From: a virus | Lineage: Duplodnaviria > Heunggongvirae > Uroviricota > Caudoviricetes | Strand: one strand, 5' to 3' | DNA: 18,934 nt | Virus record (IMG/VR): IMGVR_UViG_2690316233_000002 | Span: 1 to 18,934 of that record | Part shown: positions 2,300-6,799 of the stretch, in pieces | Layout: every line of letters starts with the position of its first letter | Numbering within the stretch: the first letter of the stretch is position 1 | Notes under the pieces: generated by a model | What the model was told of the DNA's origin: nothing | Databases searched by the model: none | Seen by the model: only the letters and a program-made list of their open reading frames with translations | Position numbers and translations under genes: made by a program

Positions 2300-2948
2300 T
2301 GGCAGCAAATACCGAAATATTTGGGTAGTTGGCGATCTGCACGGATGCTACACGAACCTGATGAAAAAACTGGAGACGATAGGATTCGACACCAAAAAAG
2401 ACCTGCTTATCTCGGTTGGCGATTTGGTCGATCGCGGTACAGAGAACGTCGAATGTCTGGAATTAATCACATTCCCCTGGTTCCGAGCTGTACGTGGAAA
2501 CCATGAGCAAATGATGATTGATGGCTTATCAGAGCGCGGAAACGTCAATCACTGGATGCTTAATGGCGGTGGCTGGTTCTTTAATCTCGATTACGACAAA
2601 GAAATTCTGGCTAAAGCTCTTGCCCATAAAGCAGAAGAACTTCCGTTAATCATCGAACTGGTGAGCAAAGATAAAAAATACGTCATCTGCCACGCCGATT
2701 ATCCCTGTGATGAATACGAGTTTGGAAAGCCAGTTGATCATCAGCAGGTAATCTGGAACCGCGAACGAATCAGCAACTCACAAGACGGGATCGTGAAAGA
2801 AATCAAAGGCGCGGACACGTTCATCTTTGGTCATACGCCAGCAGTGAAACCACTCAAGTTTGCCAACCAGATGTATATCGATACTAGGGCAGTGTTCTGC
2901 GGAAATCTCACATTGATTCAGGTACAGGGAGAAGGCGCATGGGCATAA
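2277..2948 (+). CDS. ninI: Ser/Thr protein phosphatase NinI (lambda PPase family)
   Basis: Calcineurin-like metallophosphatase motifs GDLHG, GDLVDRG, GNHE. Start chosen at the internal ATG 2277 ([23 protein letters not shown]...) to match the lambda PPase N-terminus; the ORF-track start at 2202 would overlap ninH extensively. Confidence 0.9.
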
Positions 2949-3457
2949 GAGAACTAAACCTCACCAAAGAGCAGCATGAGTGGCTGAATGGCTGGCTTGA
3001 ACTGTGGGGCGCATGGGTTTATTCAGGTCGTCTGGAAAAGCGCATGAGCAGCGTAATAGCGAAGTTCATGGAGAGCGTAGAGCCGGGAAGAGTTATGACA
3101 AGGCCAATGTGCAATGATGATGATGGAATGTTGATTTCTCAGGTCGTCGATTCCGTTATGTACATTGACAAAAAAGCCTTTGGCATCCTCCTCAGCTACT
3201 ACGCTCATGGTTCATCTAAGCGAGCAATTGCATCCTACTATCACGCGACTGCAAAGCCACGCAAGATGTGTGGACGTGGTGGCGAGGGATGGAGAAAACC
3301 TTCACTGGCAACCTGTAGAAACGAAATTGACGACATCCTGAAAGCGTCGTTATTTGTTTTGTACCAGCCAATGCAAAATGCTTTCAAAATGCGTAAACGT
3401 GTTGAGAAAGTTAAGCATGTTGCTGTTAAAAGCCTTGACATGCAATTATCCATTTAG
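2939..3457 (+). CDS. Q: Late-gene antiterminator Q, non-lambda type (phage 21/82/QuuD-like family)
   Basis: 172 aa with an ELWGAW...MCNDDDGM signature recalled from QuuD-type Q proteins. Lies between ninI and the late promoter and lysis genes. GGAGAAGG Shine-Dalgarno upstream; start overlaps the ninI stop. Confidence 0.75.
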
Positions 3458-3464
3458 CCATAAT
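3435..3464 (+). promoter_or_regulatory. Candidate late promoter pR' (sigma70 -35/-10), with the presumed Q-utilisation region
   Basis: TTGACA at 3435-3440, 18-nt spacer, CATAAT at 3459-3464, straddling the Q stop codon (3455-3457) as in lambdoid pR'. Confidence 0.5.
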
Positions 3465-3474
3465 TAGAAGGTAA

Positions 3475-3520
3475 GCTGCCGTTAGTGACTCTTAAGTTGC
3501 AACGGTGGCTTTTTTGTTTG
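3475..3520 (+). terminator. Candidate Q-regulated terminator (tR'-like): imperfect hairpin plus T-tract
   Basis: GCCGTT (3478-3483) pairs with AACGG(TG)GC (3501-3509) with one bulge, followed by CTTTTTTGTTTG (3510-3520), about 40 nt downstream of the predicted pR' start. Stem is imperfect. Confidence 0.35.
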
Positions 3521-3593
3521 CACAACAGGTAAGAGCATTGAACCCGCAGACCTCGCGGAATTGGCGAAAGGTGCCGCGCAGTGCTCTTATCGT

Positions 3594-3723
3594 TGTGGTG
3601 AAGCTCAATGGCGAGCTAGCAGATAGGCGATAGTGAAAATACTAGTCATGTAGCTGACCGCCGCGCGTACTGCAATCGGCAGCGCACCGATGGAAGCCGG
3701 TTCGATTCCGGCCGCCACAACCC
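3594..3723 (+). ncRNA. tRNA-like element: canonical T-arm, anticodon-arm-like hairpin and acceptor pairing, with a ~58 nt insertion; not a standard tRNA
   Basis: T-arm GCCGG-TTCGATT-CCGGC (3696-3712). Anticodon-like arm ATCGG-CAGCGCA-CCGAT (3675-3691). Acceptor pairing TGTGGTG (3594-3600) with CGCCACA (3713-3719). D-arm-like GCTC-AATGGC-GAGC (3603-3616). No encoded CCA (ACCC follows); position 33 is A rather than U. Confidence 0.3.
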
Positions 3724-3943
3724 AAACTGAGCCGTAGCCACTGGCTATCCTAGATTCATCAGTGATAGTTATGCTGCGGCCTTCTACACATGACCTTCGT
3801 GAAAGCGGGTAGCAAGAGGCTGCGCTAACAACCTCCTGCCGTTTTGCCCGTGCATATCGGTCACGAACAAATCTGATTACTAAACACAGTAGCCTGGATT
3901 TGTTCTATCAGTAATCGACCTTATTCCTAATTAAATAGAGCAA

Positions 3944-3974
3944 ATCCCCTTATTGGGGGTAAGACATGAAGATG
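3944..3974 (+). promoter_or_regulatory. S-gene translational control region: sdi-like stem-loop and dual start codons (Met1-Lys-Met3)
   Basis: Hairpin CCCC-TTATT-GGGG at 3946-3958 immediately upstream of ATG 3966 and ATG 3972 (ATGAAGATG), the lambda S107/S105 dual-start arrangement. Confidence 0.7.
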
Positions 3975-4289
3975 CCAGAAAAACATGACCTGTTGGCCGC
4001 CATTCTCGCGGCAAAGGAACAAGGCATCGGGGCAATCCTTGCGTTTGCAATGGCGTACCTTCGCGGCAGATATAATGGCGGTGCGTTTACAAAAACAGTA
4101 ATCGACGCAACGATGTGCGCCATTATCGCCTGGTTCATTCGTGACCTTCTCGACTTCGCCGGACTAAGTAGCAATCTCGCTTATATAACGAGCGTGTTCA
4201 TCGGCTATATCGGCACTGACTCGATTGGTTCGCTTATCAAACGCTTCGCTGCTAAAAAAGCCGGAGTAGAAGATGGTGGAAATCAATAA
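3966..4289 (+). CDS. S: Holin/antiholin S (class I, lambda S type)
   Basis: 107 aa beginning [34 protein letters not shown]..., recalled as near-identical to lambda S. Three hydrophobic TM segments; directly precedes the endolysin gene. Confidence 0.95.
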
Positions 4290-4749
4290 TCAACGTAAGG
4301 CGTTCCTCGATATGCTGGCGTGGTCGGAGGGAACTGATAACGGACGTCAGAAAACCAGAAATCATGGTTATGACGTCATTGTAGGCGGAGAGCTATTCAC
4401 TGATTACTCCGATCACCCTCGCAAACTTGTCACGCTAAACCCAAAACTCAAATCAACAGCAGCCGGACGTTACCAGCTTCTTTCCCGTTGGTGGGATGCC
4501 TATCGCAAGCAGCTCGGACTGAAAGACTTCTCTCCGAAAAGCCAGGACGCTGTGGCACTGCAACAGATTAAAGAGCGTGGCGCTTTACCGATGATTGATC
4601 GCGGTGATATCCGTCAGGCTATCGACCGTTGCAGCAATATCTGGGCTTCACTGCCGGGCGCTGGTTATGGTCAGTTCGAGCATAAGGCTGACAGCCTGAT
4701 TGCAAAATTCAAAGAAGCGGGTGGAACGGTCAGAGAGATTGAGGTATGA
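4273..4749 (+). CDS. R: Endolysin R (lambda-type lytic transglycosylase)
   Basis: 158 aa, [35 protein letters not shown]..., recalled as near-identical to lambda R. Start overlaps the S 3' end. Confidence 0.95.
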
Positions 4750-5183
4750 GCAGAGTAACCGCGATTATCTCCGCTCTGGTTATCTGCATCATCGTCTGTC
4801 TGTCATGGGCTGTTAATCATTACCGTGATAACGCCATGACCTACAAAGAGCAGCGCGATAAAGCCACATCCATCATCGCTGATATGCAGAAGCGTCAACG
4901 TGATGTAGCTGAACTCGATGCCAGATACACAAAGGAGCTTGCTGATGCTAACGCGACTATCGAAAGTCTCCGTGCTGATGTTTCTGCTGGGCGTAAGCGC
5001 CTGCAGGTCGCCGCCACCTGTGCAAAGTCAACGACCGGAGCCAGCGGCATGGGCGATGGAGAAAGCCCAAGACTTACAGCAGATGCTGAACTCAATTATT
5101 ACCGTCTCCGAAGTGGAATCGACAGGATAACCGCGCAGGTTAACTACCTGCAGGAATACATCAGGACGCAATGCCTTCGATGA
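4746..5183 (+). CDS. Rz: Inner-membrane spanin subunit Rz (i-spanin)
   Basis: 145 aa with an N-terminal TM helix ([18 protein letters not shown]) and a coiled-coil periplasmic domain. ATGA overlap with the R stop; N-terminus matches lambda Rz as recalled. Confidence 0.9.
4945..5130 (+). CDS. Rz1: Outer-membrane lipoprotein spanin subunit Rz1 (o-spanin), embedded in the +1 frame of Rz
   Basis: ORF wholly inside Rz in another frame. Signal peptide with lipobox-like LGVSAC followed by a proline-rich stretch ([12 protein letters not shown]), parallel to lambda Rz1. Start chosen at Met10 of the track ORF (4918); ATG 4978 is an alternative. Confidence 0.75.
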
Positions 5184-5583
5184 TAGCGATAATTTTACTC
5201 ATCATCCTTCACATCTGGCTCTGTAGACAGGGTGGTGATCACTTCTGGAGTGAATCCAGATTAAACATCTCATTGCTGATGCTTGATATTGAGCATCTGG
5301 CGCGCGGTAAGGGGCTGCGTTGAGATAAGAGCCAGTTCATTACAAAGCCTATCTACTGGTGGGCTTGATAATGAAACCGGAATTTATTCTGGGTAACCAG
5401 TTACGGCAGTACCGCGAAACAACCCAAGCCAGTAAGTGGGGAAATAACACTGGCAGCCACTGAAAGATGAACCTCCTGCCTTATGGCAAAAAAGATTCTT
5501 TGTGGTGGCGGACTGATGGAAAGACATCGGTTATTGCAGAGGCCATTCAATGAGTGGTCTCGACAATGGCTTATACCCTACAC

Positions 5584-5609
5584 GGGATAACTTAACTGAT
5601 ATCCCTTTT
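5584..5609 (+). terminator. Hairpin plus T-tract (weak intrinsic-terminator-like structure) upstream of the moron ORFs
   Basis: GGGATA (5584-5589) / TATCCC (5600-5605) with a 10-nt loop, followed by TTTT (5606-5609). AT-rich stem, so probably weak. Confidence 0.3.
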
Positions 5610-5630
5610 AACGGATAAACGGAGCCAACA

Positions 5631-5873
5631 ATGGCAGAGATTATTCCCATGACTGAAGAACAGAAATTCAAGTTAGAAATTTACCGACTGCTATCTAAGA
5701 ACAATTCAGCGGCAGAGGAAGCGTTTGCATTCATTGGTGCTGACCAGTTGAAACTGGAATTGTTCAAGTTGCACTACAACGATGGCGGTGCAAATCCAGA
5801 CTTCACATCTCGCACTATCGAAGCGGTGCGTAAATCGAAGGAAGCGTTAGACCTGTTCACTACCGGAGGGTAA
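5631..5873 (+). CDS. Hypothetical protein (80 aa), moron between lysis and packaging modules
   Basis: ORF with GGAG Shine-Dalgarno about 9 nt upstream of ATG 5631; 3-nt gap to the next ORF. No recognisable motif. Confidence 0.55.
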   Translation: MAEIIPMTEEQKFKLEIYRLLSKNNSAAEEAFAFIGADQLKLELFKLHYNDGGANPDFTSRTIEAVRKSKEALDLFTTGG

Positions 5874-5876
5874 GAG

Positions 5877-6164
5877 ATGACTGAACAAGAAATGCCGAGA
5901 TACCAGTGCCACAAAAAAGTTCGCGCCCTGAAGATTGGCTCTATAGAACATAAGCCAAACCCAGATCAGTCTGGTAAGACTGGCTCTTCTAGTTATGGGG
6001 CAATTATTCATCCGGATGATAAGAAATACGCAGCATTTGATGTTAGCGCGGAATATATCTGTAAGCACCGACCAATGTCTGGAGGCTATTACGTTGTCTA
6101 TGAGGATGGATATGAATCATATTCTCCTGCTGAGGTATTTGAGTCTGGATATTCAAAATTATAG
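5877..6164 (+). CDS. Hypothetical protein (95 aa), moron between lysis and packaging modules
   Basis: ORF with GGAGGG upstream of ATG 5877 and a Tyr/Gly-rich C-terminus. No recognisable catalytic motif. Confidence 0.6.
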   Translation: MTEQEMPRYQCHKKVRALKIGSIEHKPNPDQSGKTGSSSYGAIIHPDDKKYAAFDVSAEYICKHRPMSGGYYVVYEDGYESYSPAEVFESGYSKL

Positions 6165-6173
6165 GAATCCTCT

Positions 6174-6353
6174 ATGACAAGCGTCGTTGATCTTGGTAAG
6201 GAGAAGAAATTCCCAATTACTCAAGAGCTATACGAGAGGCTGGAAAGCGTCATTCATGATTACGATGGTGAAATCAGTTTATGCGAGGCGATTGGCACAC
6301 TTGAATTGCTGAAGCAGTCACTGATTGAAAGCGCGAAAGAGTCCTTAACCTGA
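6174..6353 (+). CDS. Hypothetical small protein (59 aa)
   Basis: ATG 6174 preceded by AGGA; translation MTSVVDLGKEKKFPITQELYERLESVIHDYDGEISLCEAIGTLELLKQSLIESAKESLT. Fills the gap before the small terminase gene; below the ORF-track cutoff. Confidence 0.4.
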   Translation: MTSVVDLGKEKKFPITQELYERLESVIHDYDGEISLCEAIGTLELLKQSLIESAKESLT

Positions 6354-6376
6354 AATAACAACTAAGTGAGATGAAT

Positions 6377-6799
6377 ATGGCGACTGAACCAAAAGCTGGT
6401 CGCCCCTCTGATTATATGCCGGAGGTGGCTGACGATATCTGCTCGTTGCTTTCTTCTGGCGAAAGTTTGCTGAAAGTATGTAAGCGTCCTGGTATGCCGG
6501 ATAAGTCCACTGTTTTCCGCTGGTTGGCAAAGCATGAGGATTTTCGCGACAAGTACGCGAAGGCAACTGAGGCACGAGCTGATTCTATTTTCGAAGAGAT
6601 ATTCGAAATTGCTGACAATGCGATTCCAGATGCTGCTGAGGTGGCAAAGGCAAGACTTCGCGTTGATACCCGCAAATGGGCGCTGGCCCGAATGAATCCC
6701 CGTAAGTATGGCGACAAGGTAACTAACGAGCTTGTCGGTAAGGACGGCGGCGCAATCCAGATTGAAACATCACCGATGAGCACTCTATTCGGAAAATGA
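6377..6799 (+). CDS. Terminase small subunit (Sf6 gp1-like)
   Basis: 140 aa from ATG 6377 (MATEPKAGRPSDYMPEVADDICSLL...), recalled as closely matching the Sf6 small terminase. ATG 6371 is an alternative start. Immediately precedes and overlaps the large terminase gene (ATGA). Confidence 0.8.
   Translation: MATEPKAGRPSDYMPEVADDICSLLSSGESLLKVCKRPGMPDKSTVFRWLAKHEDFRDKYAKATEARADSIFEEIFEIADNAIPDAAEVAKARLRVDTRKWALARMNPRKYGDKVTNELVGKDGGAIQIETSPMSTLFGK

Follow-up and report, generated by a model that had tools for sequence, protein, structure and literature searches.

A non-coding interval between the lysis and packaging genes of a lambdoid phage: conserved boundary blocks and possibly vacant accessory-gene slots

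The interval between Rz and the DUF2560 gene

The DNA analyzed here, hereafter the window, comprises the 18,934 nucleotides (nt) of the IMG/VR virus record IMGVR_UViG_2690316233_000002 and is a segment of the late operon of a P22/Sf6-like lambdoid phage. Its subject is the interval at positions 5184-5630, which separates the lysis gene Rz (4746-5183) from an intact DUF2560 gene (5631-5873, starting at 5631). The gene order of the window runs from the nin genes through the Q antiterminator gene (2939-3457), the holin gene (3966-4289), the endolysin gene between holin and Rz, and Rz itself to the DUF2560 gene, followed by the Sf6-type small terminase (6371-6799), 3' of which lie the large terminase, the P22-type portal and the coat genes. 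An earlier reading made from the sequence alone (hereafter the sequence-only reading) had set the interval between Rz and a moron cluster, where a lambda-like lysis module meets an Sf6-like packaging module, and the domain content of the three genes at 4746-5183, 5631-5873 and 6371-6799 bears this out. It had also claimed that no open reading frame (ORF) of 60 codons or more occurs there; with both strands checked, none touches 5184-5630, and the longest complete ORF lying wholly within it has 49 codons.

Gaps of more than 400 nt lacking such an ORF occur twice in the 18.9-kb window, namely here and at 3458-3949. As 61% of shuffled versions of the interval are likewise without a 60-codon ORF, its lack of a long frame is statistically unremarkable, and it behaves as non-coding DNA amid a dense late operon. 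Apart from a possible gene of 50 amino acids (aa) directly after Rz, the interval is non-coding. In 5' to 3' order and on the plus strand it holds a stem-loop that we term hairpin A (copy 1, 5338-5373), a variable spacer (5374-5402) that is its most polymorphic stretch (nucleotide diversity, pi, 0.16), a conserved non-coding core of 126 nt (5403-5528) that is nearly invariant over 5421-5528, a second copy of hairpin A (5531-5569), a terminator-like hairpin designated H7 (5584-5609), and a conserved tail, AACGGATAAACGGAGCCAACA (5610-5630), which contains the GGAG ribosome-binding site of the DUF2560 gene. The hairpins listed in the sequence-only reading, GATGCT/AGCATC (5278-5297) and GGGATA/TATCCC with TTTT (5584-5609), are both present, but the two strongest, at 5338-5373 and 5531-5569, had escaped it.

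Conserved blocks and variable cassettes in related phages

A nucleotide search of the interval against phages recovered 210 records at 80-99% identity, and we aligned it with nine reference phages and about 190 further loci. Among 5426 complete Escherichia coli genomes, 2552 contain a partial match to 5338-5630 and 691 match at least 80% of its length; the only features annotated under these matches are neighboring or inserted protein genes, the stretch itself being essentially unannotated. The alignments break at recurrent coordinates: 5346/5338, where the 9 nt CATTACAAA are common to both sides, 5386/5396, 5401-5403, 5528/5530, 5582, 5589/5617 and 5690. The suggestion that a recombination junction lies here is thus supported by the alignments with relatives, although they reveal many junctions around conserved blocks instead of a single breakpoint. 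The blocks are 93-99% identical across P22-like podoviruses and HK97-like siphoviruses, and where the upstream block is conserved to this degree the DUF2560 gene itself is only 67-89% identical. Judged from these alignments, the interval is a mosaic linker of conserved boundary blocks.

Two of the junctions harbor unrelated genes in different phages. Between 5346 and hairpin A copy 1, relatives carry rha (P22, CUS-3 and LF82 Gally), KilA-N together with hkbL (HK620 and Stx2 phage 1717), a GIY-YIG nuclease gene (epsilon34), a gene annotated as acr, or an insertion sequence (IS; SEN22). Between 5528 and hairpin A copy 2 they carry genes of the Gp49 family/Sf6 gene 66 type (Sf6 and Huey), a DUF551-like gene, or genes encoding proteins of 56 or 80 aa. 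Every cassette at 5528 lies on the plus strand and is followed by hairpin A and H7, and the position is vacant in 70 loci, as it is in the window. Unrelated genes are therefore present or absent between genes that are otherwise adjacent, the pattern by which the sites of accessory genes (morons) are recognized. The other mark of a moron site, a dedicated promoter upstream of the inserted gene, was not seen; this comes from a consensus scan only and from a window that holds no inserted gene.

Further breaks surround the same blocks. Sf6 and HK620 have about 58 additional nt between 5386 and 5396, and the matches of P22 and epsilon34 begin on the left at 5401-5403, immediately beyond rha or the GIY-YIG gene. 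The pid moron of P22, encoded on the minus strand, interrupts H7 at the equivalent of 5589|5617 in the window; the pid transcription unit (P22 40,405-40,880; coordinates from PMC8835761) falls within a P22-specific insert at 40,369-40,999. The siphoviruses HK97, HK022 and the mEp phages have a different packaging module, yet share 5338-5690 at about 94% identity, a span that takes in a remnant of the first 20 codons of the DUF2560 gene upstream of their HNH gene. In Stx2 phages, Ayreon and the Sakai prophage Sp3, one hairpin A of the copy-1 type or of an intermediate type is joined straight to H7, right after the lysis genes and with no core.

Two side observations concern the extent of this region. 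HK97 retains, unannotated, the first 60 nt (20 codons) of the DUF2560 gene (locus 2295-2354, corresponding to 5631-5690 of the window) just upstream of the HNH endonuclease gene gp74, and this marks the exact edge of the shared block against the HK97 packaging module. Moreover, contigs of metagenome-assembled genomes labeled as Cellvibrionaceae, Bacillota and Collinsella (our loci L196, L197, L200 and L201) carry this enterobacterial phage region at 76-97% identity; these four are probably mis-binned phage contigs.

Hairpin A is a duplicated stem maintained on the late-transcript strand

Copy 1 of hairpin A (5338-5373) is a 14-bp stem-loop with a 2x2 internal loop; as RNA it folds at -19.7 kcal/mol (z -6.05), and its minus strand reaches only -12.4. 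Copy 2 (5531-5569) has 16-18 bp and likewise a 2x2 internal loop (-23.6 kcal/mol, z -6.12). Both conform to the motif CCATTACAAAGCC - apex - GGCTTTGATAATGG. A covariance model derived from copy 2 together with H7 recovered its own unit with 115.8 bits (5528-5619) and copy 1 with 29.3 bits (E-value 3.7e-5; 5334-5397), with no further match in the window, and nhmmer also recovered copy 1. On this evidence the two hairpins are paralogues of one motif, because the copy-2 model finds copy 1 and because the single hairpins of the copy-1 or intermediate type join H7 directly in the Stx2 phages, Ayreon and Sakai Sp3.

To examine the pattern of substitutions we used 64 distinct sequences of the unit formed by copy 2 and H7, with 16 pairs in hairpin A. 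Across these, 98.2% of the cells are paired, and 5 of the 16 pairs have changed on both sides (AU/GC, GC/AU, UA/CG and GC/GU/AU/CG/UG among the states seen). The observed pairing, the number of cells changed on both sides and the covariation score were attained by none of 500 shuffles, and in a control with the partner slid by one to three columns the pairing falls to 37-50%. The alignment contains about 153 G-U cells as against no more than 18 non-standard ones. The stem of hairpin A is maintained by compensatory and G-U substitutions on the strand of the late transcript; given the many G-U pairs and the much poorer fold of the minus strand, the selected molecule is most simply the plus-strand RNA, that is, the late transcript. 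The proposal in the sequence-only reading of a structured RNA locus accordingly stands insofar as there are two copies of one stem-loop with compensatory changes and strand asymmetry, and falls short insofar as there is no Rfam match, no promoter and no published discrete transcript.

With nhmmer we identified 281 copies of hairpin A in 191 loci, one or two per locus and never more, and 124 of these begin between -5 and +14 nt from the stop codon of an upstream same-strand frame of at least 50 codons. Downstream of the small ORF and CATTACAAA, epsilon34 and LF82 Gally have a canonical intrinsic terminator, AGCCTCGCATTTGCGGGGCTTTTTT, at the place where the window has copy 1, and in the record of Ayreon hairpin A was marked as a terminator by its annotators. 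The position of the hairpins after stop codons and cassettes, together with a terminator at the spot of copy 1 in relatives, is the architecture expected of 3'-end elements of accessory cassettes. A genome-wide repeat of the repetitive extragenic palindromic (REP) kind is ruled out, since there are at most two copies per locus and, in the window, at this locus only. We also dropped the idea that ACTGGTGG in the apex of copy 1 is a Chi site, because relatives have ACGGGTGG or ACAGGTGG there. The hairpin motif is absent from the K-12 prophages DLP12 and Qin.

A 14-nt linker separates copy 2 from H7, which consists of GGGATAAC/GATATCCC (5584-5605) followed by TTTT. The stem of H7 has 6-8 bp with three or four G-C pairs (-8.3 kcal/mol, z -3.35), is followed by UUUUAA in the RNA, and has a single occurrence in the window. 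Loci gathered without requiring its presence show almost no variation in it, so that it is uninformative for covariation.

Vacant slots as the preferred reading

With modest confidence, we interpret 5184-5630 as the unoccupied form of an accessory-gene region known from between the lysis and packaging genes of lambdoid phages. The corresponding region of P22, the pid locus between orf25 and orf80, has been described as a moron locus (PMC3573128, PMC8835761). The first slot would lie between the small ORF (to 5346) and hairpin A copy 1 (5338-5373), which would form its 3' boundary. The second would have the core (to 5528) as its 5' flank and, as its 3' boundary, the unit made of hairpin A copy 2, the 14-nt linker, H7 and the run of four T (5531-5609). 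Both slots being empty in this phage, the boundary blocks abut. As RNA in late and moron transcripts, hairpin A and H7 would form putative 3'-end structures that stop or attenuate RNA polymerase not modified by Q and/or protect the upstream mRNA after processing; in lytic growth the Q-modified polymerase would read through them, and the terminase and head genes would thereby be insulated from accessory-gene transcription. The conserved flanks could in addition serve as homology arms at which the recombination systems of phage and host exchange cassettes. We infer both the 3'-end and insulator role of the hairpins and the homology-arm role of the flanks from the comparisons above; the latter fits homology-driven mosaicism, the general view for lambdoid phages (PMC2327257, PMC3945230).

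Several points weigh against this interpretation. The compensatory changes stem from three or four hairpin types or lineages, and hence from few independent events. Hairpin A folds strongly (-20 to -24 kcal/mol) yet has no U-tract; in H7 the stem is weak (-8.3 kcal/mol) and the U-run only four long, a simple terminator scan made no call there, and the run of four T is replaced in a few relatives. H7 and 30 nt of the core were themselves used as search patterns, which censors their variation. Finally, a role as boundary or homology arm does not by itself explain the near-invariance of the core, the diversity of which is about a quarter of the third-position diversity of its neighbors.

The conserved core

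The diversity of the core (5403-5528) is 0.02-0.05, against 0.09-0.11 at the third codon positions of Rz and the DUF2560 gene, and loci collected without using the core as a search pattern show the same degree of conservation. It shows no sign of coding: diversity by phase is 0.020/0.026/0.030, without a periodicity of three, stops occur in all frames, and there are 1-nt insertion/deletion (indel) polymorphisms, namely GTTA/GTTAA, A6/A7 and G4/G5. No ORF of more than about 50 codons spans it in the roughly 190 nucleotide-level relatives, a deep protein search of its frames not having been run. The conjecture of a decayed gene is therefore not supported for the window, given the lack of a longer core ORF in relatives, the 1-nt indels and the missing codon periodicity; its one lead, Orf-118 of ST64T, resolves into an upstream ORF and the DUF2560 gene, which is intact at 5631. 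The nucleotide and translated searches against phages that had been proposed for finding such a gene matched only the same short ORFs. The low diversity of the core suggests a sequence-specific function, and either sequence-level constraint or very recent spread would lie behind its near-invariance.

A functional non-coding RNA (ncRNA) or regulatory leader, made of the core and perhaps ending at hairpin A copy 2 and H7, would account for such constraint. It might be a trans-acting small RNA (sRNA) or sponge, an anti-defense RNA, or a cis-acting leader controlling the gene placed after the core. We regard this as unlikely, even though near-invariance extends over more than 100 distinct phage sequences, the two hairpins and T-run after the core have the usual shape of an sRNA 3' end, and the core always stands upstream of the variable plus-strand cassette. 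The core further contains, at 5471-5477 on the plus strand, an exact ACCUCCU, identical to the anti-Shine-Dalgarno end of 16S rRNA. Its predicted fold, however, is no better than that of shuffled sequences (z -1.9, -1.7), indicating a thermodynamically unstructured RNA, and RNAalifold on an alignment of 104 distinct core sequences gave 0 compensatory pairs. Complementarity of the core to the rest of the window, which might have indicated antisense or trans pairing, amounts to a single 10-mer, fewer than expected by chance.

Promoter, family and transcript evidence also speak against such an RNA. A consensus scan recovered no sigma-70-like site on the plus strand over 4700-6400 of the window, nor in the homologous stretch of Sf6. 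No Rfam family, Proteo-phage-1, AgvB, AsxR, IsrK and C4 included, reaches its gathering score in the whole window. With the region scanned at E-values up to 10, the best sub-threshold match, Proteo-phage-1 at 5423-5458, is at chance level (16.8 bits against a threshold of 42, E-value 2.7) and involves only the single-stranded ends of the model (16 of the 18 bases of its 3' tail), both model hairpins missing; that family is also absent from 20 related loci (9 + 11). Among those BTP1 ncRNA coordinates that bracket the rha-pid locus, in the part of the source consulted, no ncRNA is placed at the rha-pid spacer. LF82 Gally carries the core at 100% identity, and in its lysogens no gene except the repressor is expressed above background, hence no moron (PMC9928086). 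The Hfq peaks of Sakai include none at the Sp3 copy of the unit formed by hairpin A and H7.

Other explanations

About equally unlikely is that the interval consists of gene remnants left by recombination and has no function, its identity among phages reflecting recent horizontal spread and hitch-hiking with exchanged neighbors instead of selection. Several observations would suit this explanation: no relative is more divergent than about 80%, as a young sequence would be expected to show; only phages of Escherichia, Salmonella, Shigella and Shimwellia carry the element; HK97 has an obvious remnant, the first 60 nt of the DUF2560 gene, beside the block; the 35-aa ORF treated below has its start in common with ST64T Orf-118; and the spacer at 5374-5402 is highly polymorphic. 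Neutral decay, however, would yield neither the retention of pairing in hairpin A through five compensatory pairs nor the excess of G-U over A-C mismatches. The blocks are moreover better conserved than the adjacent DUF2560 gene, and no intact parental gene for the core is found in about 190 loci.

More doubtful is a bolder proposal, namely that the core and/or hairpin A constitute an undescribed functional element of enterobacterial lambdoid phages, acting either as a late-infection ncRNA decoy or regulator of host or phage factors or as a structure-specific site of cassette capture. Were it true, a capture site would explain why unrelated accessory and anti-defense genes pile up at exactly these coordinates, and the prophages of about an eighth to half of the sequenced E. 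coli genomes would carry an element annotated nowhere.

It is also improbable that the function of the gap is to encode micro-proteins, for which there are three candidates. The first is the longest ORF to reach into the interval, the 50-aa ORF on the plus strand at 5171-5323, the ATG of which overlaps the end of Rz, with AGGA 5 nt upstream and a hydrophobic N-terminus compatible with a membrane-like peptide. The sequence-only reading was right that the gap has only short ORFs, but overlooked this one, which overlaps the Rz stop codon and appears as an annotated gene in numerous records of phages and of E. coli; homologues recorded as coding sequences are Sf6 gene 65, epsilon34 gene 67, Sakai ECs0822 and LF82_RS25570, as well as those of Ayreon and Huey. 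A protein search with it returned 66 matches, 65 from E. coli and one partial from Enterobacter, all at least 67% identical. It thus found close relatives only, which along with the lack of a Pfam domain gives no functional hint, and the homologues have two alternative C-termini. Diversity by codon position is 0.042/0.019/0.028 in this ORF, with no excess at third positions, compared to 0.031/0.019/0.090 in Rz. Its coding status, on these sequence patterns, is uncertain. Even if the ORF is real, 5324-5630 is non-coding.

Two further observations touch this ORF. In SEN22 an IS-like element with a frameshifted transposase stands between Rz and the equivalent of window position 5194 (retrieved locus 285-1432); its place inside the 50-aa ORF suggests that the ORF is dispensable. 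In addition, the 3' arm of the first copy of hairpin A, GCTTGATAATGA (5363-5374), has a repeat within the ORF, GCTTGATATTGA at 5281-5292, which may be a remnant of a third copy of hairpin A, one that the covariance model does not call.

The second candidate is a 35-aa upstream ORF (plus strand, 5483-5590), the first 33 codons of which are identical to the annotated N-terminus of Orf-118 of ST64T and phage L. It has no Shine-Dalgarno sequence; its ATG is lost in 4 of 120 distinct sequences and 1-nt indels shift its frame in 5 of 104, so that start or frame is lost in about nine, and in Sf6 it is split by the insertion of gene 66. From these patterns it is probably not a gene. In ST64T, Orf-118 results from reading this ORF on, in frame, into the DUF2560 gene, the start of which corresponds to residue 39. 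Residues 1-33 represent the upstream ORF, and residues 39-117 the DUF2560 domain, opening with the same MAEI as the 80-aa product of the window's gene. The annotation of Orf-118 is thus probably over-extended in both ST64T (locus 1647-2003) and phage L (locus 601-957).

The third candidate lies on the minus strand, where 5478-5472, the complement of the ACCUCCU described above, reads as a perfect AGGAGGT with a GTG 10 nt downstream that opens an ORF of 19 codons; its length shifts with the GTTA/GTTAA indel. As for a 30-codon ORF that the sequence-only reading had begun at an ATG at 5381, its true start is the ATG at 5371.

Finally, it is very improbable that hairpin A acts as a DNA-level recombination site for cassette capture comparable to the attC sites of integrons. 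In favor stand its form, an imperfect inverted repeat whose base is conserved and whose apex varies, its placement where each variable cassette ends on the 3' side, and the many junctions at its edges. However, no site-specific recombinase or integrase-like gene is associated with it in the window, its one-strand G-U pairs indicate pairing of RNA and not DNA, and junctions also occur at many places away from it.

Other features of the window

The second ORF-poor gap, at 3458-3949, lies between the Q gene (2939-3457) and the holin gene (from 3966), and is the expected location of the late promoter, its terminator and the moron/sRNA site between Q and S; the Rfam scan of the window placed no tRNA or sRNA there, and no tRNA or tmRNA elsewhere in the window either. 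The 95-aa ORF at 5877-6164, 3' of the DUF2560 gene, has no Pfam match, and relatives have a shorter gene of the hkbN/orf59c type in its position.

Significance

In P22-like and other lambdoid phages, exchangeable accessory genes are housed between lysis and packaging, among them pid, rha, Gp49-family genes and anti-CRISPR genes called by annotation pipelines. If the blocks are indeed a docking frame, a search between the core and the unit of hairpin A and H7 would be a simple way to look for new accessory and anti-defense genes in thousands of prophages, and the blocks would also supply a well-defined and apparently neutral place to insert genes when these phages are engineered. Being widespread, unannotated and supported by covariation, the hairpin motif could be curated as an RNA motif, and the near-invariance of the core poses a concrete, testable question.

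Relationship to known systems

Hairpins that act as RNase III processing sites and mRNA stabilizers in polycistronic phage transcripts are exemplified by the T7 R sites and lambda sib. Hairpin A resembles these in being a stable, strand-specific stem of 16-18 bp with an internal loop, located directly after stop codons in a long late transcript; it differs in that its stem is shorter than that of the classic RNase III substrates.

Prophage sRNAs at moron sites include AgvB/AsxR, at the Q-S site (PMC4104026), the Pas sRNAs (bioRxiv 10.64898/2026.05.13.724894) and STnc6030 of BTP1 (PMC7067206). As with these, the interval presents conserved non-coding sequence at an accessory-gene site of lambdoid phages that is widespread in E. 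coli. Unlike AgvB/AsxR and Pas, which we set aside as candidates given their location at the Q-S site, it sits after Rz, and unlike prophage sRNAs in general it has no match to their Rfam models, no promoter, no Hfq peak in Sakai Sp3 and no ncRNA annotated in BTP1.

A closer parallel is provided by the boundary (linker) sequences of lambdoid phages (Clark et al. 2001 for HK620, and the 'bsq' features of Sf6), which likewise are short conserved sequences at the edges of exchangeable modules and exceed the neighboring genes in conservation. None of the Sf6 bsq features is annotated within this interval, bsq7 lying inside Rz. Moreover, the conserved sequence here includes a stem-loop whose structure is selected on one strand, a property not needed if the sequence served only as DNA homology.

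The closest parallel is with the morons of lambdoid phages and the pid locus of P22; morons with flanking terminators were reportedly described in lambdoid phages by Juhala et al. in 2000 (cited via PMC4104026 and PMC2629481). The interval lies at the same point of the late operon, with Rz on its 5' side and the DUF2560/orf80 gene and small terminase on its 3' side. As at those loci, unrelated accessory genes are found in some phages and missing in others between genes that are neighbors elsewhere, and stem-loops mark the 3' ends of the inserted genes. It differs in that the slots of the window are empty, the scan found no moron promoter, and the boundary hairpin lacks a U-tract and hence is no canonical terminator. 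The type of locus is already known, and its version in the window is for the most part an ordinary, empty non-coding linker. In the records and literature consulted the conserved boundary blocks are apparently neither described nor annotated. The features that appear to be new are the covariation-supported unit of boundary hairpin and H7, the cassette frame of core, gene and hairpin A-H7 unit, and the near-invariant core; all three are absent from Rfam and unannotated, and they are widespread.

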